A program made the position numbers and the translations under genes. This document shows, one piece after another, positions 50,408 through 63,717 of a DNA stretch of 64,000 nucleotides. The notes under the pieces are model-generated. The model made no database searches. It saw nothing but the letters and a program-made list of their open reading frames with translations, and was not told where the DNA came from. This stretch comes from an uncultured Chloroflexia bacterium (GTDB lineage: Bacteria; Chloroflexota; Anaerolineae; B4-G1; SLSP01): contig CAVVUS010000024.1 of NCBI GenBank assembly GCA_963751345.1, positions 64,001 through 128,000 on the forward strand, given 5' to 3'. The first letter of the stretch is position 1, and every line of letters begins with the position of its first letter.

Positions 50408-51830
50408 GGCGCAGCTCCGCCCCCAGCATCGTCATCGTCTCCGCGAAGCCAGGGAACGAGTCCGGGATACATTCGGCTCCCATGACCTTCGTCTTCCCCC
50501 TCGCAATCAGTCCCGCGACGACCAGGGCCATACCCAAACGGTGATCTCCTTGGCTGTCCACTTCGGCGCCCTGCAGCCGCGTCGGCCCTGCCACGACAAA
50601 GCCATCCGGCCGAGGTTCGATCTCAGCCCCTAGCTTGCGGAGCTCCATCACTACCGAAGCAATCCGATCGGTCTCCTTCACGCGCAGCTCCGCCGCGTCG
50701 CGGACCACCGTCGTGCCCTCTGCCTGGGTGGCCAAAACGGCAAGGATTGGGAACTCATCGATCATCCTCACCACGATATCCCCACTCACCTCGGCGGCCA
50801 TAAGGCCGGAAGCGCTCGCCGTCACGTCCGCGACGGGCTCCCCGCCCTGTTCGCGTACGTTGTCCACGGTCACGTCGGCTCCCATCGAAAGCAGGACCTC
50901 CAACAGACCGGTACGAGTTCGGTTGACCCCGACCCCCAGGAGGGTCACCCTGGCACTTGGGATACACAGTGCGGCAGCCAGCAGGAACGCCGCGGAAGAG
51001 AAATCACCCGGGACGACCCAGGTCAACGCCCGCAGATAATCGATGGCCCCAGGATCAAGCCTGGCGGTGACGGCATCGAACGCTATCGCCAAGGTGCTCG
51101 CTCCGCCCTCCGAGGAAACCGCCGCCAGTCTGCCGGCGCTGGATGAGGATCTCTCGCCGGTCTGCCTGAGCGCGATCTGCGCCATCAGCATCCGCTCGGT
51201 GTGATCCCGAGCCGGGCCCGGAAGCAGTACGTTGACCGGCCCATCGGCATACAACCCGGCGAGCAGAATCGCGCTCTTGACCTGGGCGCTTGCCACCGGC
51301 AGCACGTGATCGGAGCCCCTCAGGGGGCCCCGTCCCCGGATGAGCAGCGGAGCGTGACCCTCCGTGTCCGTGATGTCGGCGCCCATCTGCCTCAGCGGCT
51401 CCGTGATGCGACGCATCGGCCGGCGCAGCAACTGGGACTCCCCTGTAAGCTCGGAGTCAAAGGACTGCCCTGCCAGGATGCCCGAGAGCAGGCGCATCGT
51501 CGTCCCGGAGCGCCGGCAGTTGAGTGGACGATCGGGCGCCACCAGACCATGGAGCCCGCGCCCTTTGATCTGCAGGCGTGGGCCATATCCGGGCGTCGCC
51601 ACGGCGCCGACCGAGGGCCGATCTACTTGAGCCCCCAACTGCCGGACGCAGTCCAGCGTTGCCAGGCAGTCTCCGGAAGGCAGAAACCCCTCGACGACGC
51701 TCGTCCCATCGGCCAGGGCAGCAAGCATCAGTGCGCGATGGGAGATCGACTTGTCTCCCGGCACCGAGACCGTCCCCTCCAGCGTTGCGGACCCGCTAGC
51801 GCCGAATCCCTGAACGATCAGCCAAGTCAT
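50397..51830 (-). CDS. aroA: EPSP synthase (class II)
   Basis: PGDKSISHR, SGTTMRL, RPM.R, SAQVKSA, RDHTE, IDEFP, RVKETDR, DHR. Confidence 0.95.
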   Translation of the reverse strand: MTWLIVQGFGASGSATLEGTVSVPGDKSISHRALMLAALADGTSVVEGFLPSGDCLATLDCVRQLGAQVDRPSVGAVATPGYGPRLQIKGRGLHGLVAPDRPLNCRRSGTTMRLLSGILAGQSFDSELTGESQLLRRPMRRITEPLRQMGADITDTEGHAPLLIRGRGPLRGSDHVLPVASAQVKSAILLAGLYADGPVNVLLPGPARDHTERMLMAQIALRQTGERSSSSAGRLAAVSSEGGASTLAIAFDAVTARLDPGAIDYLRALTWVVPGDFSSAAFLLAAALCIPSARVTLLGVGVNRTRTGLLEVLLSMGADVTVDNVREQGGEPVADVTASASGLMAAEVSGDIVVRMIDEFPILAVLATQAEGTTVVRDAAELRVKETDRIASVVMELRKLGAEIEPRPDGFVVAGPTRLQGAEVDSQGDHRLGMALVVAGLIARGKTKVMGAECIPDSFPGFAETMTMLGAELRHGE

Positions 51831-52701
51831 GGGAACATCTCCTTGCGCGTGTCCCTGATATAGGACAGCGTCTCACGCAGCGCGGCTTCATCTCCATCCT
51901 CAACCAACTGGATAAGACGTCCCAACTCGGCGGCGCAATGTCGCGCGGCCTTCACGACCTCGTCGCGGTTTGTCGTGAGGATATCGACCATCATCGTGAC
52001 GTCGCTGCCTGCCACGCGCGACGTGTCGCGATACCCCCCTGCGACGATCTGCCAGGCCAGGGGATCGGTCGATGTTGTGGCATCCGCCGTGCTCACGAGC
52101 GCGCAGGCAAGTAGGTAGGGGAGATGGCTCACCGTACCCACGAGATAGTCCTGACGCTCGCCGTCGATGACCAGTGGGGTTGCTCCCGCGCTCCGCACCA
52201 GGGCTTCCCCCAGACTCAACGCTGCCTCCGACGTCCGAGGAAGCGGAGACAGGATGAACGTGCGGCTCTGAAAGAGCGTCGGATCCGCAGCTTCGATACC
52301 TGAGGTCTCCTTGCCACACATCGGGTGCCCACCCAGGGGCTGTACGTGATCGGGTAAGCCGTCATCGCCTCAAGAACCTTCTCCTTGGTGCTGCCCAGAT
52401 CGAGAAGGAGCGAACCCTCTCGCAGCCACGGGCCTATCTCGCCCAGCAGCCTGATAATCGTGCGGACCGGCGTCGCCAGAATCGTAATATCGGCCTCCGC
52501 GACCCCTTCCTTCAGGTCCAGCACGCCACGATCGACAAAGCCCCGGCGCAAGGCGGCCTCCAGGGTCTCAGGGCTGCTGTCTACACCGATAACCTGTGCA
52601 CAGTGACCACGCAGCGCGCCCGCCAAAGAGCCGCCCATCAAACCAAGGCCCACAACCGTGACCACAGACTGTGAAAGAGGTTTCATCTCCAACGACGCCA
52701 T
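51827..52701 (-). CDS. tyrA: Prephenate/arogenate dehydrogenase (missing base near 52357)
   Basis: [23 protein letters not shown] across the frame break, [15 protein letters not shown]. Confidence 0.9.
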
Positions 52702-52714
52702 ATCTGTCGCCGCC

Positions 52715-53729
52715 CTATATCTTTCGTCCGACAGCAGCGGCTATCGGCCGGAGCGAATCCATGAGTTCGGCGAAACGTTCCAGCTTGAGAGACTGCCCTC
52801 CGTCCGAGAGCGCCTCCTCTGGCCGCGGATGGACCTCGATAATCAGGCCATCCGCACCAGCCGCGATGGCTGCCCGCGCGACCGGACTTACCAACTCCCA
52901 GTGTCCGGTCCCGTGGCTCGGATCGACAAGGACGGGTAGATGGCTGAGCTGCTTAAGCAAAGGTATCGCACTGATGTCCAGCGTATTGCGTGTGTAGGGC
53001 TCAAAGGTCCGGATGCCTCGCTCGCAGAGAATCACGCGATTGTTGCCGTGTGACAGGATGTACTCCGCCGACATCAACAACTCCTCGATCGTCGACATCA
53101 TGCCCCGCTTCAAGAGGACGGGGCGCTGAGACTCACCCACGGCGTGCAACAGTGCATAGTTCTGCATACTCCGCGCGCCAATCTGCAGGATGTCGGCGTA
53201 GGTCGTGACCAGCGGCACCTGTTCGGGAGACATCACCTCTGTCACTATCGGAAGGCCGGTAGCCTCTCTTGCCTCGGCGAGCAGCTTGAGTCCTGTTTCA
53301 CCGAGACCCTGGAAACTGTAAGGAGATGTGCGAGGCTTGAACGCCCCCCCGCGTATTGCGTGAGCGCCGGCAGCCTTCACCGCTTCTGCGGTTTCCATGA
53401 GCTGGCTCGGCACTCTCGACAGCACAGGGACCAGCCATCACGATCACTTGCTCACCACCGATAGAAACGCCGTTGATCGGGAAAACGGAGTTCTGCGGAT
53501 GGAATTCACGACTGGCCAACTTGAAGGGCCGCAGTACCGGAACGGTGCGCTCCACACCCGACATACGGTCGATCTGCTCGTGATCGATCGGGCGCCCATT
53601 GCCAATGACACCGATAATCGTGCGCTCCTCGCCTTCGGAAAGATGGACCTGGCATCCCATCTGCTCCACGCGAGCCGAAACGTTGGCGATCTGTGCCGCC
53701 GTTGCTCCGTGCTTCATAATGATAATCAT
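52715..53729 (-). CDS. aroF: DAHP synthase type I-beta with N-terminal regulatory domain (indel near 53405)
   Basis: [22 protein letters not shown]; then [36 protein letters not shown]. Confidence 0.92.
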
Positions 53730-54610
53730 CTCCCCTCCCCCACATTAGCCTCTGTAACAGCACCGTCCCATCTCCACACCTCATCAACCATCGGCGTCGT
53801 CGCCGCCGGGTAAGAGCCCAGCATCTTGACGAACGATGCATGGCGCAGCAACCCCATCAGCGCCGCCTCAGCCGCCAGATCCTGGCAATGCCCCTCGAAG
53901 TCGAGATAGAAAGTGTAGCGCCAGGGCTGATTCAGGCGCGGGCGCGACTCGATCTTGGTGAGGTTGATGCCTCGGTTGGCGAATTCGCCCATGCATTTAT
54001 ACAGTGCCCCGGGGCTGTGACGCGTGGAGAAGACGACCGACGTTTTCGTGCGTTGGGCTCGGGGCGGATCATCCGTGCCCATGACGAAGAAGCGTGTGTA
54101 GTTGAAGTGGAAATCCTCGATGCCCGGATCCAGGATCTCCAACCCGTACATCTCGGCCGCCAGTCCACTGGCGATCACGGCCACGTCCGGCTCGGGGTTT
54201 TCGGCCAAGTCCCGGGCACTGCCTGCGGTGTCAAATGCCGGCTCCGGCTTCAGTTCGTAGCGAGACAGGTACCGCTGGCACTGCGCCAGAGCTTGGGGAT
54301 GGGATCTCACACGGCGTATGGCCGCGCGTTGGGTTCCGGGCTGCGCCATCAGCATGTGGCGAACACGCAGGATGACCTCTGCGTTGATCCGTAGATCGCG
54401 CTCCAGGAGCAGCTCGTAAGCGCCTGCAACCGAACCGGCAACCGCGTTCTCGACCGGCAACATGGCGTAGTCAACTCGGCCGGCCTCGACCTCCGGGAAC
54501 ATGTCCTCCAGCCCACGACAGGGCAACGTCTCAACGTCCGAGCCAAAATACTGGCGGATGGCCTCCTCTGAATAGGCGCCCGCCACCCCCTGAAAAGCAA
54601 CGCGTGTCAT
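53726..54610 (-). CDS. pheA: Prephenate dehydratase with ACT domain
   Basis: AFQG..GAYSE, PVEN..AG.V, SHPQALAQC, NYTRF, NLTKIESRP. Confidence 0.94.
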   Translation of the reverse strand: MTRVAFQGVAGAYSEEAIRQYFGSDVETLPCRGLEDMFPEVEAGRVDYAMLPVENAVAGSVAGAYELLLERDLRINAEVILRVRHMLMAQPGTQRAAIRRVRSHPQALAQCQRYLSRYELKPEPAFDTAGSARDLAENPEPDVAVIASGLAAEMYGLEILDPGIEDFHFNYTRFFVMGTDDPPRAQRTKTSVVFSTRHSPGALYKCMGEFANRGINLTKIESRPRLNQPWRYTFYLDFEGHCQDLAAEAALMGLLRHASFVKMLGSYPAATTPMVDEVWRWDGAVTEANVGEGR

Positions 54611-54981
54611 ACTCTCCCCCTCTTCAGATCCGGTCTCAACTGCACTGCATCTCGCAAATAGACATGGTTGATCTCTGCCGGCGCGCGATCCGTGTTCCAA
54701 TGAACCAGCACCCGAACGCAGCGCGGAAGGCTCCCCTCTACCCGCATCTCCTGCATACAGAGAAGGGGTGTTTGCGTCCAGCCCATCTCTCGCGCGACTA
54801 CCGCAGGATAGACCGCATCCAGGTCGGGCGTCGCCGTAAAGATCACGCTGGTAACATCCTCGACTTCCACCCCGTTCTCATCAACGACGGCCATCAACAG
54901 CGTGCGTGTGGCCTGAATAATGGCGTCCACTGTGTTTTCCGGCACAGTGATGGCGCCCCGAATGCCACGACATCGAACCAT
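54607..54981 (-). CDS. aroH: AroH-class chorismate mutase
   Basis: CRGIRGAIT, FT.TPDL.A.YPA..AR, PLLCMQEM, CVRVL, YL..A..LRPDL. Confidence 0.94.
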   Translation of the reverse strand: MVRCRGIRGAITVPENTVDAIIQATRTLLMAVVDENGVEVEDVTSVIFTATPDLDAVYPAVVAREMGWTQTPLLCMQEMRVEGSLPRCVRVLVHWNTDRAPAEINHVYLRDAVQLRPDLKRGRV

Positions 54982-55003
54982 AACAATGCCCCCTTCCAGA
55001 TAC

Positions 55004-55037
55004 AAAAAAGACGTGGAGCCGGTCGGCTCCACGTCTT
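55004..55037 (-). terminator. aro operon attenuator terminator
   Basis: Transcript AAGACGTGGAGCC-GACC-GGCTCCACGTCTTTTTT, about 22 nt before the aroH ATG. Confidence 0.92.
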
Positions 55038-55252: not shown

Positions 55253-55645
55253 TCACCCGCTAACGCGCTGCAGGGCCTCCAGCGCGGACGTCAGGGCATC
55301 ACCCATTGTGCGCAACATCGTTTCCCGCGTCTTCAGCGCTTGGGTGACCATCGACTGGTGAATGTCCCACACGGCGCGATCGACCTGATCGTTGTTGTCA
55401 ACGGGCAGACAGACCGTCGTGTCGCAGTCGAAATCCACGCGCGTGTACGCCCGCAGTCGCAGTTTGTCGGCGAGCCCGGGATCCAAAAGGTTCAATCCAC
55501 CATCTGCTAGCATCTTGATCTGCGCGCTGGGCGTGGTGAAGGTCCGGACCTCCAACGTACTGATGTCGCTCACAAATGTCTCCGCCTTAGATGCCAGATC
55601 TTTGGTGAACTTCTCAATTGCGTTTCTCAGATCGCTCTCAGCCAT
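55253..55645 (-). CDS. Hypothetical 130-aa protein, stand-alone copy of an unnamed domain (domain X)
   Basis: ATG 55645 with SD GAGGAGG; TLEVRT, LRAYTRVDFDCD, WDIHQSMV..A...R. Confidence 0.8.
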   Translation of the reverse strand: MAESDLRNAIEKFTKDLASKAETFVSDISTLEVRTFTTPSAQIKMLADGGLNLLDPGLADKLRLRAYTRVDFDCDTTVCLPVDNNDQVDRAVWDIHQSMVTQALKTRETMLRTMGDALTSALEALQRVSG

Positions 55646-55707
55646 TCCTATCCTCCTCATGGATCCTTCGAGAATACGTATGCATCCTCAAGGCAACGGA
55701 TACCGCT

Positions 55708-56553
55708 CTAGCCGGTCAGCACACCATCCGGCAAGTGCTCGAACTCGGACAACACGTCGCGGACGTATTTGTACACCGCAGGAATTAACAATATCTGCCC
55801 TCCCGGCACGGATGCCTTGAGTGCCAGGTCTAGCGCCCCGGTGGTCACAACTGAGATCAGTCGCAGTAACGCTCGACGGGACGCCAACGCCAGCTTCACG
55901 TCTTCCAGATGGAGCGCCATATCGAGAGCCGTCAGCCCGATCGACCAAGCCGTCTCGTAATCGCCGGTCCAGTCCACGGTGGTGATCGCAATCAGCTTAT
56001 CGTCGATCCGCGTCTCAACACGGGCCCAATGCTCCACAAGCTGGCGGAGCTGCGTAAGAAGCGCGCTTGTCGCCTCGATCCGCCCGACCTGTAAGGCGAG
56101 CTGACCATACGGCTTCACCTGTTGAGCCTCTCCAGAGAAGGCTGTCACGGACCCGGCCAGCGCGGTGACCTCGGCGAGCAGCTCACCATCGTGTCGCAGA
56201 ACGACCTGTCCGCCGTAGGAGGCCACCGGGCTCAGAGCGCCCAGATGCTGCGAGATGAGGTCCAACTCCTTCATCCGTCGATCAACGATCGCCAGTTGAT
56301 CGTGCAATACCCGCCGGGTCTCTCTTGTGGCAGCCGGATGGCGCACCCGCCACACCATCCCATCGAGAGGACCGTCAGCCGCGTAAGCTGCTGGCTCCTC
56401 GGGTACAAATGCCGTCCCGGGCGCGTCCGCCGTCCGAGGCGCGTCCGCCGTCTGAGACGCGTCCGCCGTCCCAGGCGCCAGGTCCCACACACCCAGTGGG
56501 TCCTGACCGTCAGGCAGCGCGAATCCCGACCAGTCGTACGTCGATGCACTCAT
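55708..56553 (-). CDS. Hypothetical 281-aa protein with divergent domain X and a hydrophobic C-terminal hairpin
   Basis: ATGA overlap with the upstream gene; ARVETR, AITTVDWTGD, LH...V..A...R, then LLRLISVVTTGALDLAL and ILLIPAVYKYV. Confidence 0.75.
   Translation of the reverse strand: MSASTYDWSGFALPDGQDPLGVWDLAPGTADASQTADAPRTADAPGTAFVPEEPAAYAADGPLDGMVWRVRHPAATRETRRVLHDQLAIVDRRMKELDLISQHLGALSPVASYGGQVVLRHDGELLAEVTALAGSVTAFSGEAQQVKPYGQLALQVGRIEATSALLTQLRQLVEHWARVETRIDDKLIAITTVDWTGDYETAWSIGLTALDMALHLEDVKLALASRRALLRLISVVTTGALDLALKASVPGGQILLIPAVYKYVRDVLSEFEHLPDGVLTG
56411..56476. repeat. 18-bp in-frame tandem repeat, about 3.7 copies
   Basis: GCGTCCGCCGTC(C/T)(G/C)AG(G/A)C at 56423, 56441 and 56459 plus a partial copy; encodes TADASQ/TADAPR/TADAPG. 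Confidence 0.9.
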
Positions 56554-59007
56554 GCCGAACCGATCTTCAGACTATCGAGGAGACGCGTCGCGAGTTCCGC
56601 CATCGTAGCCAAGAACTTAGATCGGCTGTCCTGGGCCTCCTCAACCATCGATTTGTGGATCTCCCATAGAGCGATATCGACCTCGCGGTCGCTGTTCTCG
56701 GGCACGTAGACCTCAAGGTCGCCGTCAAATGCCACCCGCGTGAGCGCGCGAAGCGTAGCAGGGTAATCCGCATGCGTCTCCAGGGCTGCCGCTACCCGTT
56801 CGATATCGTCGGTCGAGTAGGTTTTGACATCCAACGTCACAATATCCTCGGCTGCGTGACCCAGCGAAGTCGCCAACTGATCGGTAAAGGCACGCAGCGA
56901 ATCCCTCAGCCTCTCAAACTGATCCGCCAACCCAAAGGCCACAGCGACCTCAGCGTCGGACATCGCCGCGATCCCCGACACGGAAGGGCCAGGCTCCCGC
57001 GACTTGGGCTTGAGTTCAGCCTCCGCCCATGGTCGAGCGGCGCGGTCCACAGGCGCCGTCACGATAGGAACCTGGCCTTGCTCACTAACCGACGTCTCCA
57101 TAGCTTCAGGAGCGTAGACTTCAGCTTCCGATGGCTCAGCCGCGGGGATCGGGGGCGGCACGGGATAAGCCGCGTCTTGAGTCACCAGCTCCGGCACTAC
57201 GAGAGATGGACCGCCCTGGAACTCCTCCGTCGAGGTGGCTGTCTCTTCCTCCTCGGGAGACACCGGCTGCTCCCGGCTCACTTGCTCCTCCGCTCCCTCG
57301 ACTTCCGGCTCCACCGGCTCCTCGTCCTCAGCGGGCACCTCCGGGTGCCTCGGGTTCAGGCACCGTGATCGTGCCGGCGTCGGGACCCTCCTCAGACGGC
57401 GGTTCGGGAGGCGCAAAGGGAATGCGTGCCGCCGGGTCTCCTATGACCACATAGCTTCGGGCATCGTTGTTGGCCGTCCATCGATTGGCAAGCTCATAGT
57501 CGTCCATATAGCCGGGATCCCACTTTAGCTCCTCGAGATCAGCACTCAGATCGGAGCTCAACTCGGCGTAGCGCATATCGAAACTGGTGTCGGTCGCGAG
57601 CCCGACCGGCTCGCCGTTCATCAGCATGCGCATCGCGGTGACAAACGACTGGTTTGTCATGCGCCCGGTTGGGGAGATGAAAGAGTAACCCCACGCCCGC
57701 TCCACGTGCCCCAGCACGGCCAAGGCGCCCTGTCTGAGCATCTGCTGCGGTAGTGCAGCCGTGAACCCCCGCGGGGCAATCTTCTCCCTTACCTTGAAGG
57801 CCTGCGCTGCGAACTGATCTAGTTGCGGCGTACCCGCGCCATAGCAGGCGAAGAAGAACGCCATCATGCCCAACAAGTCAGCATCTTCGGCGATGTCCTC
57901 GCCGGCGAAGTAGTAGTCTCTCAGGACGTCTCGACCAACACCCGGCCAATCCTGGCACAACAAAGCGCCCTGTTGCCGCAACTGTGCCGGATGTCCGGCA
58001 GGAAACTCAATCCCGTGGCTGGCACTGAAGAGCAGCGCCGGCGTCTGCGCAGGGTCACCGCCAAGGAGCTGTGTGAGTTGGTCGTGTGTGGCCAGGCCCT
58101 CACCCATATAGGGCGGGTGGATATCCCAATCATCCACCAACCCAAGCTCGAAATCCCGGGCCGCTATCGTGAGATTCTCGTACAGGGGCTGGACCAGATA
58201 CTGCGAACTCAACTTGGTCGCCTTGTCCCCCGGATTCTCCGGGGCGAAGAAGGCAGCGCGCCTCGGGAGGGCGATCTGTCCCGTCTCACACGCGACGACG
58301 TTCTGCGCATACCGGGCATACGCCTCGATGTCGGTCCCGAAATCCAGGCGGCCCACCCCACGCATCACGTCGATTTGGTACTGGAAACGGTAGGGTATCT
58401 CCTCGGGCGTGCCGATCAGGAGCACGTAGAATGGCATCTCCTGGGGGTCGACCAGTCCCGGCCCGACGCCGAGACGCTCGAACACCTGATCCTTACGCTC
58501 GCCGGCCCGGTACGCGTCCCCCCCCTCGTACATGCGAAAGAGATCCCCAGCCTGTTCATGTCGCAGGTCTAGCAGCGGCTGAAGCGCATCCTTGATCTCC
58601 TCCCGCACCCGCGGGTGCATGTCGGCGGGGAACATCACGGCCCACCCCACATCCTCCACGCGCGAGGGATCACCGGCCCCGGGCTTGACCGGATAGGGCG
58701 TGCGTGTCGCCGCCTTGAATCTCAGTTCCTCAAGGCGGACGGCGTCGTGCGACTCCTCAAGTGCAGACTGGACATCTGTGACCCGGGTCAGACGGTCCTC
58801 GAGGCCGGTGAGCTCTGCAAGCTGCCGCTGTCGATCGACGAATTCGCGGTAGTCCTGAGGAATAGGCTTCCCCTGGATGAGCCGCGCCAACTGCTGCGGT
58901 GAAAGCGGTGGCTGTCCATAGTTGCCAGTGACAGCATTGATCCCGTTGAAGACCAAGCGAGAGGGCTCGTCATCCTCTTCAGGAAGCGCTCTCAACTTAT
59001 CGGCCAT
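56550..59007 (-). CDS. Clan CD (C25/caspase-like) cysteine protease, Pro/Glu linker and domain X (probable single gene; indel near 57342)
   Basis: LVFNGIN..TG.Y, PFYVLLIG.P..IPY.FQY..D, VGRLDF, LLFSASHG (His 58015-58017), FFACYGAG (Cys 57844-57846), [16 protein letters not shown]...GDP. Removing one base gives PEPEAPEVPAEDEE and joins ORF 56550..57416. Confidence 0.75.
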
Positions 59008-59042: not shown

Positions 59043-61308
59043 TTACGCCTGTTCCGTCGTACTACCGAGGCGGACCACAGGGACGCCACGAAGGCGTACC
59101 GCTGGGTCACCGACGACAATGTAGCCTCGGGCGTCGTTGTTTGCCGTCCACAGCTCGGCGAGCCTGATACACATCCTCCACCGATGGGGGATCCCCAATC
59201 TGATCGTAGAGATAGGTCAGCTCGGTGGCAATCGCAGCATAGCGCATATTCATGAAATCCAGCGCAGACCCTACCGGGTGGCCGGCAAGCAGTCGTTCGA
59301 TCACACTCGCAAAGACCTCAACGTGCTCACGCTTCCGGCCTTCCATCCCCCCGGGCCGGCTGGTGACATCAGTGAGGAAGGAGAGACCCCAGGCGCGCTC
59401 CACGTGCCCGATCACGGCCAATGCCCCGTGGTCCTTGAGTGCCAGTATCGCCTTCGGAAGCGCCGCAACGAATGGGTTCTCGGCAATCGACGTCGCCCGC
59501 TCCTTGAACTCAGCTCGGTGATAGGCATCAGTCTGCGGGGTGCCCGCACCGAAGCACGCAAAGAAGAAGAGGATCATTCCCCTGAGGTTGACAGCTTCGG
59601 TGACGTCCGATGCCGAAAGGTAGGCCTCCGGCGGGACGTAGCCCTTGCGGCCACTCCAGTTTTGGCAGAGAAGCGATCCCTGCAGATTCCGCTGTCGTGG
59701 ATCATCCGGCGCAAACTCCAAGCCGTGCGTCGCCGTAAAAAGCAGCGCCGGCGGGGGCGTCAACTGGAGGATCTTCAGGAGGTTCGCCTTCGTCGCCTTG
59801 GCCGGGGCAATTCGTAGGATCTGCCAAGGGGACCCCACTGCCCTTGCCCTGAAATGCTGAGCAAGCGGCGCAATCAGATGGTCGGACGTCAGCGCCGTGG
59901 CCTCATCTCCAGGGTGTTCCGTCCCAAAGAAGACGACCTGGGAGTTAGGTGTCGCTGCCGCCGCTGATTCCTCCTCAACAGATACAACGTTCAGCGCATA
60001 GTTCCGGTAAGCCGTCAGATCATCGCCAAAATCCAGACGGCCTACCGCGTATTGAACGTCCAATTGGTACTGGAAGCTGAACGGGATGTCGTTTGGGTCG
60101 CCCACCAGCAACAAATAGTAGGGGACGCCTGTGGCGCGTGGATCTGCCGGGTTTGCCGCGTCGGCATTGCGTGGTGGGCGCCTCAGAAACATGCTGGCAG
60201 TATCACCGGAACGGTAGCCGTGCCGTCCCGCATAAACGCGGTAGAGGACACCGGCCTGGCGCTGGCGCAACGCCAAGAGCGGAGCCAGGGCCTTCTGGAT
60301 GATCTGGCAGTGATCCTCCGGCATCGAGGCAGAGAAAACGATGCCCCAGCCGGTCTGCCCGATCTGCATAGGATCCACCCAGGGGACCGTGCCCAACTGC
60401 CCGGTCACGCTGCGCCTCAGCTCGTCGAGCCACGCACGCATCGCATCGATAAAGTCGGACTGGCGTAGAGGCTGCCTGGCGCGTCGAAGCGCCGTTAACA
60501 CGCTGCGGAGCCCGGCGACGATCTCGTGCCACGAGTCGAACGCATCCGCCCTCGACAGCGCCGCCAGCCGCTCGCGCGGTTCGGACGCCGAGGGCCGTCC
60601 CTCGCTCCGCAGACCCCCAAGCGTTCCGAGCACATAGACCAACATCCGGAGCGGCCCGGCAATTGCATCGGTGCCCGGCAAGACCTTGAGGGACTCCACC
60701 GGCAGCTCGTCCAGGGCCCAACAGAACTCGTCGATCCACGGCGAACGCAGGACGCCCTGCTTGTCCAGAGGACCTGTCGCACCCTCGCTTAGGTACGTCT
60801 TCCGAACCGCGGCCAATGCCTGATCAAATCGCGATTCGAGCGTGCTGCGGAGCGTCGCCGAATTGGCATTCTCCTGGTCAAGCAACCATTGTGCGAGCGC
60901 AGCACCCTGCCCTCCATTGAGCAACCTGACGATGCGGACGAGGGTGTCCACCGGCTCTTGCTTGAGCTTGCTTGCCAGCACAGCGACATCCCCGGCGAGG
61001 GGTTTGCCCTGCCCGCCTAAGAGGATCGACAAAAGACGGTGGGCACTGTCTACGTACCAGACATTGCGCGGGCGAAGCTGCCCGCCCAGTAACTTGAGAA
61101 TATCCTGTGCCAGGAACTCGACAATTGAGAGGATCTTCCGCTCGCTAGTCGCCCGAACCATCAGTTCCCGCTGCAACTCACGAAGCTGGCGGGCGGTGTC
61201 ATAGCGGTCGGTCAAGACGTGATCGGCGAGGGTCTCGACCGTCATAGGCTGGAGCCCATACGCGCCTGTCACGCCGTTGACGCCGTTGAAGTAGAGTTTC
61301 TCGGTCAC
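59043..61308 (-). CDS. Clan CD (C25/caspase-like) cysteine protease with a large helical N-terminal insert (indel near 59163)
   Basis: GTG 61308; [39 protein letters not shown] (His 59725-59727), FFACFGAG (Cys 59554-59556), GHVERAW. Corrected tail [24 protein letters not shown] ends at TAA 59043. Confidence 0.8.
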
Positions 61309-61671: not shown

Positions 61672-63717
61672 ATGAAGAGCGAGTTCGCCCTAGCCTTTAA
61701 CCAGATCTGTGCTGAATACAGCTTGCCAAGAGAGGTTGTGCTGGACGCAGTCCGCGCCGCCTTGGCGACCGCGTTCCGGCGTGACTGGAAGGTTCCGGCC
61801 ACGCAAAACGTGTCCGCAGAGATCAACCTGGAGACAGGGTTAGCGCGTATCTACATAGAGCGAACGGCGGTTGAGGAAGTAGTAGATCCTGACATCGAGA
61901 TCCCGCTCAAAGAAGCTCGCCGCAAGAAGGCCAATGTGCAGTTGGGTGACATCGTGTTGGTTGACGTCACACCCCAAGATTTTGGTCGTATTGCCGCGCA
62001 GACCGCAAAGCAGGTTATTACGCAGCGTCTGCGGGAAGCGGAACGTGAAAGCCAGTTCAACCGATTCAGCCGGCAGGAAAACGAGATCATCATCGGCACC
62101 GTCCAGTCGGTCAACCCGCATGGCGTGACCCTGCATCTGGAGCGGACGGAAGAGGCCCACATGCCGAGGCGCGAGCAGATTCCGGGAGAACGTTACGTTC
62201 TGCACCAGAAGATCCGCGTCTACGTGCTGGAGGTTCGTCGAACTTCTCGGGGCCCGGAGATCATCGTCAGTCGCAGCCATCCGCTGATGCTGCGAAGGCT
62301 GCTGGAACTCGAGGTGCCTGAGATCCGCAATGGGCAGGTGGAGATCAACGCAGTTGCCCGAGAGGCCGGCACCCGAGCGAAAGTTGCGGTTTCGGCCCGA
62401 CAGGCGGGTATCGACCCGGTCGGTTCCTGCGTGGGGATGAGGGGGATCCGCATCCAGACGATATCCCGCGAATTGCACGGGGAACGCGTCGACGTCGTCG
62501 AGTGGAGTGAAGATCCCGAGCACTTCATCACCAATGCATTGAGCGTTCCCGCTATCGTCTGTGTCACGCTGGACGAGAACAACCCCGGGGGCCGAACAGC
62601 CTCCGTCGTCGTGATGGATGACCAGCTTTCGCTGGCGATTGGGCGTTCAGGGCAAAACGCGCGACTCGCCGCCAAGTTAACGAATTGGCGGATTGATATC
62701 CAGGGCGGTACGGAAGCCGCCATCTGGGCACTGGAGCAGGTGAACCATACACCCGAGCTGTTGGATGCGTTGAAGGGTGAGGCGACCCTAATCCCACGTC
62801 TGGCTACGATTATGCGGACGCACGAAGAGGATCAATATCCGTATACCGACGAGGAACGGCACATCATCGGGTCCGTTGTCAAGGCGGTACGGCAGGCGAT
62901 CATCGCGCGCCGAGAGGCCGAACGGCCCGGATCAGTCCAGACGCGGGCACGGCAGCATGCCCAACGCAGGGCCGAAGCGGAACGCGTCAAGGCCACAGAA
63001 GTAGCTCATGCACGGGTACCAAGAGGTGCCTACAAGGTACCTCTCAGCGATCTTGAGTTGTCCAAGAAAGTCTATACGCACCTCATCACGAATGGCCTCA
63101 AGAATGTGGGCGAGGTGATGGAGAGAATGGCTGTCGGCGACGAGGCCCTGCTGATGCTTAACGGCGTCGGCGTAAAGGCACTTCGGGAGATCAAGCAAGC
63201 CGTTGATGAGAGTGGGCTCGGTCTGCTGGATCAAGAAGAGCCCGAGGGTGACGGAGCCGCCGTAGCCGAGGCCTTCGCAGACGAAGGCCTCGCAGACGAA
63301 GCGGGAACAGACGACGGTCTTGCGGAGAGCAGCGAAGAAGCGGAAGCTCCATCCGAGGAAGCCGAGACGGCGGAACCGGAGGTGGGAGCGGAGACACAGA
63401 TCGTTGAAGAAGCTGCCGAGCCGGTCGATGGAGCCGCGAGCGCGGAGTCCGATGAAAAGGTGTTGGAGGAGGAGGCTACGCCGGCTGTTGAGGCGTCTCC
63501 TGAGCTTGCTGAGATCGCGGCGAACCTTGAGGGGGTCCTCTTCGAGGAACCTGAGGATGAGGAACTTGAGGAAACCAGCCCATCCGGTAGGACACGGAAG
63601 GGGCGAAAACGCCGTCGCACCGTGGTGTATGATGACGCTACCGGCGAGACTTTCGTCATGCGAAAGCATCGCAGCCGCACCACAGACTCGTGGGACGAAT
63701 ACAGCGAAGATTTTTAG
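61672..63717 (+). CDS. nusA: Transcription factor NusA with extended C-terminus
   Basis: FGRIAAQTAKQVI.QRLRE, S1 domain, AREAG.R.KVAV, GSCVGMRG, LSLAIGRSGQNARLAAKLT; then an alpha-CTD-like segment and an acidic tail. Confidence 0.96.
   Translation: MKSEFALAFNQICAEYSLPREVVLDAVRAALATAFRRDWKVPATQNVSAEINLETGLARIYIERTAVEEVVDPDIEIPLKEARRKKANVQLGDIVLVDVTPQDFGRIAAQTAKQVITQRLREAERESQFNRFSRQENEIIIGTVQSVNPHGVTLHLERTEEAHMPRREQIPGERYVLHQKIRVYVLEVRRTSRGPEIIVSRSHPLMLRRLLELEVPEIRNGQVEINAVAREAGTRAKVAVSARQAGIDPVGSCVGMRGIRIQTISRELHGERVDVVEWSEDPEHFITNALSVPAIVCVTLDENNPGGRTASVVVMDDQLSLAIGRSGQNARLAAKLTNWRIDIQGGTEAAIWALEQVNHTPELLDALKGEATLIPRLATIMRTHEEDQYPYTDEERHIIGSVVKAVRQAIIARREAERPGSVQTRARQHAQRRAEAERVKATEVAHARVPRGAYKVPLSDLELSKKVYTHLITNGLKNVGEVMERMAVGDEALLMLNGVGVKALREIKQAVDESGLGLLDQEEPEGDGAAVAEAFADEGLADEAGTDDGLAESSEEAEAPSEEAETAEPEVGAETQIVEEAAEPVDGAASAESDEKVLEEEATPAVEASPELAEIAANLEGVLFEEPEDEELEETSPSGRTRKGRKRRRTVVYDDATGETFVMRKHRSRTTDSWDEYSEDF

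Follow-up and report, generated by a model that had tools for sequence, protein, structure and literature searches.

A small domain repeated in three adjacent genes of filamentous Chloroflexota, one of them encoding a C25-like peptidase, and its possible role in docking

Why should three adjacent genes each encode a copy of the same small domain, with one of the copies attached to a peptidase? The question is raised by a locus in a 64,000-nucleotide stretch of DNA from an uncultured Chloroflexia bacterium (contig CAVVUS010000024.1, positions 64,001 to 128,000; the whole stretch is referred to below as the window). Between nusA and a group of aro genes, this locus contains five minus-strand open reading frames (ORFs), namely those of two C25-like peptidases (C25A and C25B), a 288-aa ORF, a 281-aa protein (p281), and a 135-aa ORF. 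None of the five proteins reaches a family in Pfam, NCBIfam, PADLOC, or PHROGs, and the NCBIfam scan gives only subthreshold noise. A first-pass annotation, made from the sequence alone, had placed copies of an unnamed domain, here designated X, in the last three ORFs; all three copies are found where it put them, on the minus strand. The analysis described here shows that X is a module common to the peptidase, p281, and a free-standing protein, whose genes form a conserved three-gene cassette. Whether X serves to dock these proteins onto one another is a question on which we see even chances.

Two of the copies are closely related, as the first-pass annotation had it. The product of the 135-aa ORF (free X) and the tail of the 288-aa ORF (residues ~160 to 288) share 44 identities in 126 positions (35%) in BLASTP, with an E value of 1e-18, and an hhalign comparison of the free X profile with the tail gives 99.4% (E value of 9.5e-22). 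Free X has 51 homologues, mostly of 130 aa and 45 to 97% identical to it. Because all of them align from M6, this residue is the true start, and the product has 130 aa, the length assumed at the outset. The AlphaFold2 model of free X (pLDDT, 84.9) consists of helix 4-27, strand 30-37, a loop, strands 63-71 and 76-79, and helix 90-129. According to this model, X is a module of ~115 residues in which a three-stranded sheet follows an N-terminal helix and precedes a long C-terminal one. At the thresholds used, X has no family match in Pfam, NCBIfam, PADLOC, or PHROGs. These scans place its sequence in no named effector-associated domain (EAD) family or Death-like family. Structural searches with the X model return nothing usable, which is no proof of a new fold: the best Foldseek match in the PDB has an E value of 0.62, and the best VIA-align wide matches (Z of up to 7.6) are helical hairpins only. 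The ESM Atlas contains nothing usable for either X or p281.

The third copy, inside p281, had been described as weaker, and it lies beyond the reach of BLASTP, which finds no match of p281 to either X (E values of 2.1 and 3.5). It might be argued, therefore, that this likeness is a chance one between helix-rich sequences and that the domain is merely duplicated. Apart from the blank BLASTP result, the first hhalign comparison of the X and p281 profiles gave only 5.3%, and the X hidden Markov model (HMM) directly matches a single one of six p281 homologues (E value of 9.9e-5, among 29 ORFs), leaving five of the six loci without a cross hit; in the three C39-type loci (described below), neither HMM yields any. 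However, with increasingly diverse profiles, support rises to 58.3% (P = 9.7e-5) and then to 87.0% (P = 4e-6, over 99 columns, with profiles enlarged by homologues that belong to another class of the phylum), and all three independent profile pairs give the same register, which is also the one in the first-pass annotation. Specifically, LRAxT.v.fDGD of X is aligned with L.AlT.VdWtGD of p281, followed by conserved H, V, A, and R. The score of 43.2 compares with 20.7 for the best of 100 column shuffles, the same value for the best of 100 block shuffles, and 14.7 and 13.6 for reversed profiles. In the reciprocal direction, the p281 HMM matches four of the five X domains in four loci of family f2, with E values from 1.8e-6 to 2.4e-5. 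The p281 model (pLDDT, 79.3) has helix 149-174, strands 177-183, 186-193, and 199-203, and helix 209-247, an order of elements identical to that in X, where strand 1 is followed by an extra loop of ~25 residues. A tree of 58 rows, for which two thirds of the metagenomic p281 rows had been thinned out beforehand, groups the p281 segments in a single clade (100/100) set off by a long branch (1.91). A chance resemblance is thus very improbable; judging by the profiles and models, the third copy is real, but old and divergent. In the same tree, the free X copies fall among the fused ones as two well-supported groups, one of the window type and the other comprising the f21, f4, and C39 types. Free X may have arisen twice or may have strongly diverged.

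In the window, the second copy of X and C25B are in different reading frames. Nevertheless, the first-pass annotation was right to assign the domain to the protease, since the two are parts of a single gene in all 21 other genomes of the same genus, where the second X ends an open frame of 712 to 897 aa (296 aa in the window). The metagenomic homologues P0053, P0056, and P0057 likewise combine a C25B-like domain, the linker, and X in one reading frame. Near position 57343, the coding strand has three C residues in the window and two in G002, the closest relative, whose C25B protein is 94% identical. Three further single-base frame breaks relative to G002 are found within 7 kb, at 59166, 53406, and 52357. 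The extra base at 59166 displaces the last ~40 residues of C25A, whose conserved [14 protein letters not shown] motif is found in frame 59043-59165. In short-read contigs obtained independently from near-identical strains, the extra base is missing at 53406/7 (3 of 3 runs with coverage) and at 59165 (1 of 1); the comparison covers these two sites, and no listed contig spans 57343 or 52357. This pattern suggests that the assembly carries indel errors. Because of the neighboring frame breaks and the independent contigs without the extra bases of the window, the split between C25B and X most likely arose through an error of assembly; at most, it is a recent mutation private to this genome. Programmed frameshifting at 57343 was considered and dropped in view of the three other single-base breaks within 7 kb, two of which are in aro genes.

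The family defined by X is a large one. A profile search of 1.84 billion representative sequences retrieves 570 X proteins at E values of ≤1e-3 (288 at 1e-10), and of the 146 proteins newly listed, 145 have an X match that ends within 15 residues of the C terminus. The source names include Anaerolineae, Chloroflexaceae, and one Haliangium. The first-pass annotation had asked for a list of the domains fused to X; such heads were looked for in 60 of 150 listed proteins, chosen among the longer ones. Peptidase_C25 is found in 26 of these at E values of ≤1e-3 (in 18 at the 23-bit cut-off), CHAT in one, and Peptidase_C39_2 together with SH3_3 in one; the heads of the remaining 32 have no family match. 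The fusion of X to a peptidase is seen in families f2, f4, and f21, as well as in the genus of the window. In Anaerolinea-type metagenome-assembled genomes, the place of the C25-like domain is taken by a C39-like head with three SH3-like repeats (L030:6001-8920; also L031 and L032).

The C25-like assignment of C25B depends on its relatives. C25B is 39 to 56% identical to X-bearing proteins, several of which score above the Pfam cut-off for Peptidase_C25 (PF01364); the homologues in L024, L025, and L027 reach 23.1, 25.0, and 30.7 bits, respectively, compared to a gathering score of 23. His331, followed by Gly332, is present in all 32 aligned peptidase-X sequences (motif LFSASHG), and Cys388 is present in 31 of them (motif FFFACYG), with Ser in P0156. 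His-Gly and Ala-Cys motifs after hydrophobic strands, as in C25B, are presumably the clan CD pattern, and His331 and Cys388 are the putative catalytic residues. C25A is a paralogue of C25B (38% identity over 469 residues; E value of 2e-84) that was met, among the loci examined, only in the genus of the window. Its residues ~50 to 310 (59900-61200) form an extra, helical-looking N-terminal region of ~250 aa that has no family match and is inserted between a shared FNG(I/V)N..TG.YG motif and the peptidase domain.

In p281, a DPLGIW N-terminal motif and a stretch of poor prediction are followed by three long helices and then by the X-like domain and a strongly conserved helical hairpin. Its alignment shows conservation of DPLGIW, WTGD, His215, Arg226, and VPGGQ. 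The helices of the hairpin are predicted by AlphaFold2 at residues 209 to 247 and 252 to 273, with Gly239, Ala240, Leu243, Gly251, Gly252, Gln253, Leu255, Leu256, and Pro258 being invariant, and the maximum of Kyte-Doolittle hydropathy over 19 residues is 1.40 in the window and 1.92 in the homologue P0087. p281 has no match in Pfam (gasdermin families included) or PADLOC. Neither the best Foldseek match of its model in the PDB (V-ATPase subunit D; E value of 0.12) nor the best VIA-align wide match (Z of 5.2) is usable, which does not prove a new fold; these searches give no clear match to a gasdermin fold and do not exclude one.

The cassette of peptidase-X, p281, and free X genes is kept in the genus of the window, in families f2 and f4, and in 14 of 18 genomes of family f21, which belongs to another class. 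In a sample of 301 genomes from the phylum, X is found in 18 and p281 in 16, and each of these 16 has two X copies. With the C39-SH3 head, the arrangement is intact wherever X is kept (3 of 3 loci), a p281 homologue and free X coming after the C39-SH3-X gene. Five more distant C39-SH3 relatives have neither X nor p281 nearby. The idea of one domain on a protease, a candidate effector, and a free protein is borne out, the three genes travel together, and the heads are interchangeable. The ATG of p281 overlaps the stop codon of the upstream C25B-X ORF as ATGA, in the window and also in L030. In G027, p281 and free X are on one contig (C109; locus L040) and the STAND and peptidase-X genes on another (C22; locus L023), because of which the p281-free X pair is the tightest unit of the cassette; to judge from this gene arrangement, its parts can probably work in trans. 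An origin from a phage or mobile element was dropped, given the housekeeping flanks and the lack of PHROGs hits.

In three genera, represented by G025, G027, and G046, the peptidase gene is immediately preceded, on the same strand, by a gene for an nSTAND1-WD40 protein, with gaps to the cassette of 6, 105, and 15 nt, respectively; in G025 and G027, a CHAT-SIR2 gene in turn precedes the STAND gene. This adjacency is seen in 3 of the 11 neighborhoods annotated by Pfam or tblastn. The STAND subtype is found in 10 of the 301 genomes, that is, in 10 of the 16 cassette-positive and none of the 285 cassette-negative ones, a count that overstates the case because the genomes are kin. In G271 and G303, the STAND subtype and CHAT-SIR2 are encoded at a locus far from the cassette (L042 and L043). 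The nSTAND1 domain was defined by Kaur et al. (eLife 2021, PMC8195603). The coordinates of the main features are collected in Table 1.

Table 1. Features of the domain X locus and of related loci (positions are those of the window unless a locus is given)
Feature	Position	Strand	Basis or remark
nusA	61672-63717	+	ORF; flanks the cassette on one side
C25A, paralogous C25-like peptidase without X	59043-61308	-	ORF 59107-61308 (733 aa) plus displaced C-terminal frame
C25B, C25-like (clan CD type) cysteine peptidase part	57328-59007	-	559-aa ORF
Extra single base splitting C25B from linker and X	57343		DNA alignment to G002
288-aa ORF (linker and X tail of C25B)	56550-57416	-	ORF list
Acidic, proline-rich linker from peptidase to X	56940-57342	-	Alignment: variable length, gapped; relatives read through
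Domain X at the C terminus of C25B, with AFGL motif in front	56553-56939	-	BLASTP and hhalign
p281 (281 aa), cassette partner	55708-56553	-	ORF; 34 homologues
Divergent third X inside p281 (residues ~138-247)	55813-56142	-	hhalign, HMM cross hits, secondary-structure order, tree
C-terminal helical hairpin of p281 (residues ~227-273), moderately hydrophobic, VPGGQ turn	55735-55875	-	AlphaFold2 and alignment
Free X gene (130 codons and stop)	55253-55645	-	Start is M6 of 135-aa ORF 55253-55660
Chorismate mutase, first of the aro genes on the other flank	54607-55032		ORF
Upstream STAND-region genes	L021:1194-6766; L023:9983-13992; L027:7250-11836		Adjoin the peptidase-X gene

Some features of the flanking genes are worth recording in their own right. 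NusA is 681 aa long in total, with a long acidic C-terminal extension. The genes for 3-deoxy-D-arabino-heptulosonate 7-phosphate synthase (52715-53729) and prephenate dehydrogenase (51827-52701) each appear as two overlapping ORFs, split by the single-base differences from G002 at 53406 and 52357, respectively.

The reading that we prefer, at even odds of being right, is that X is a docking module whose three paralogues, by assembling, link a cysteine peptidase to p281, in some lineages downstream of a STAND sensor. In the peptidase, presumably cytoplasmic, X would sit behind a long, flexible linker; in p281, a divergent X would precede a hydrophobic helical hairpin; and free X, for which the first-pass annotation had suggested the part of an amplifier or decoy, would be the third component. 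The three X domains would assemble with one another, and this assembly would bring the peptidase to p281, likely a scaffold or effector directed to the membrane. The sensor upstream of the cassette in such lineages would be an nSTAND1-WD40 protein encoded together with a CHAT-SIR2 effector. We infer the binding by X and its stoichiometry, the association of p281 with the membrane, proteolysis, and a role in defence or cell death. A complex prediction with the X tail of C25B, residues 120 to 281 of p281, and free X scores 0.31 against a mark of 0.32 and has no bearing either way.

Several observations weigh against this docking scheme. On the side of the peptidase, neither C25A nor C25B of the window has a Peptidase_C25 hit in Pfam at E values of ≤1, and sequence and profile searches of the PDB with the peptidase find no relevant structure. 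The hydropathy of the p281 hairpin in the window is borderline for membrane insertion. The genomes behind the co-occurrence counts are kin, mostly of family f21, and not independent. In the loci with an adjacent nSTAND1-WD40 gene, the X profiles match the cassette proteins only and the STAND protein has no X, and the genome of the window (93% complete) has no nSTAND1 at E values of ≤1e-10. Furthermore, the same nusA and aro genes flank the cassette in the window, G002, G011, and G010. Identities to G002 are 97% for free X and 94% for C25B, compared to 94% for PheA and 89% for NusA, so that free X and C25B evolve about as slowly as their housekeeping neighbors, which is unusual for a conflict system.

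These last points are among those expected if the cassette encoded a cellular protease complex that filamentous Chloroflexota inherit vertically and use for housekeeping or development, its STAND neighbors being coincidental. The shared synteny, the conservation, and the lack of nSTAND1 in the genome of the window all fit such an explanation, as do the lack of PADLOC and PHROGs matches and the presence of the cassette in all 21 genomes of the genus and in 14 of 18 of family f21. We nonetheless consider it rather doubtful. X is patchily distributed, in 18 of 301 genomes and 6 of 172 genera of the phylum, and within the order of the window it is missing from all three other genera of the same family and from all eight f3 genomes. 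The heads are swapped, the cassette is operonic with nSTAND1-WD40 in three genera (with CHAT-SIR2 as well in G025 and G027), and the STAND subtype is confined to cassette-positive genomes of the 301-genome sample. In the genus of the window, the role may still be purely one of housekeeping.

The main rival explanation is one that is compatible with docking. It holds that X is a cargo: the peptidase would cut its own linker and p281 at an [FY]-G-[LI] motif, releasing X-type domains, which we regard as unlikely. Together with free X, which needs no cutting, the released domains would then form the active product, e.g., a membrane-active or filament-forming assembly. A motif of the form [FYW]G[LIVMF] is found within 40 aa upstream of the fused X in 63 of 120 proteins, compared to 38 of the 315 windows used as controls; C25B has it as AFGL (56930-56945), just before helix 1. 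In the hhalign alignment, the position of this motif corresponds to an equivalent point in p281, where the f21 homologues read ASFGLRDE, whereas free X begins exactly at helix 1 and is motif free. The long and variable linker and the hydrophobic hairpin that follows X in p281 are also in line with release. On the other hand, the motif is missing from 57 of the 120 fused forms, and p281 of the window has AFSG at the respective position. The motif may be a candidate site of either cleavage or docking.

The first-pass annotation had likened the arrangement to the logic of CARD, Death, and EAD adaptors. With respect to EADs, a concept introduced for NTP-dependent conflict systems (EAD1 to EAD11; Kaur et al., eLife 2020, PMC7159879), the comparison holds for the architecture, with X on the peptidase, p281, and a free protein, but fails for the STAND protein, which lacks X, unlike the partners of classical EADs. 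X resembles EADs in being a small domain common to an effector, here the peptidase, and other proteins of the operon, as seen in the window, in families f2, f4, and f21, and in the C39-type loci. Further similarities to EADs are the interchangeable effector heads, with C25-like, CHAT, and C39_2 plus SH3_3 heads (26, 1, and 1 of 60, respectively) on one adaptor; the multicellular or filamentous hosts (Chloroflexota and, for one protein, Haliangium); and the occasional operons with a STAND NTPase with WD40 repeats, CHAT, and SIR2. X differs from EADs in having no Pfam match and in being absent from the NTPase or other core protein, including that of the nSTAND1-WD40 loci, and its cassette differs in having three obligatory paralogous copies and in often standing alone among housekeeping genes. 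The words "gingipain" and "C25" do not occur in the texts of PMC7159879 and PMC8195603. A full-text literature search, confined to main texts, turned up neither the cassette nor any adaptor linked to C25. In sum, the operon logic of the cassette is that of effector-associated domains, and X matches no named family.

Adaptors with CARD and Death folds work with caspases in the apoptosome and the inflammasome. As in those systems, a clan CD-type peptidase bears a noncatalytic module that is also found on its partners, and by analogy this shared module suggests recruitment through like-with-like contacts. In contrast to Death folds, six-helix bundles that precede the caspase in the chain, X has two helices and three strands in an α/β module and is found at the C terminus. 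The C25 gingipains are secreted virulence proteases. Relatives of C25A and C25B score above the Pfam cut-off for C25 over the C-terminal portion of the catalytic domain, and the His-Gly and Ala-Cys motifs are conserved. Unlike gingipains, C25A and C25B have no Pfam hit of their own, C25B lacks an N-terminal hydrophobic stretch (its strongest hydrophobic window is at residue 378), and the genes are in an operon of cytoplasmic-looking partners. In bacterial defence operons of the gasdermin-protease and CHAT-protease types, a caspase-like protease is encoded beside a small partner that has a hydrophobic segment, sometimes along with repeat or NTPase sensors. The X cassette is similar in this pairing; however, p281 has no Pfam or PADLOC match and no clear match to a solved fold, and X has no known counterpart in these operons.

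In animals, protease-recruiting adaptor domains have a central part in cell death and inflammation; what is known of their bacterial equivalents comes mainly from comparative genomics. The X cassette adds to these a sizeable family of 570 sequence clusters and, as a compact system of three proteins with one X each, makes like-with-like recruitment directly testable. It also ties C25-like peptidases, hitherto known as secreted virulence factors, to cytoplasmic STAND-type systems. A bolder version of the docking scheme, which we put forward tentatively and as possible rather than probable, is that X represents a new adaptor fold. By bringing together a C25-like, CHAT, or C39-like peptidase, p281 as the partner that inserts into the membrane, and free X as the regulatory copy, it would build an execution complex fired by nSTAND1-WD40 and CHAT-SIR2. 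If true, this would be an undescribed bacterial cell-death pathway that is analogous to CARD-caspase signaling and built from unrelated parts, and in some filamentous Chloroflexota such a pathway would be a fixed, chromosomally stable component of the cell.

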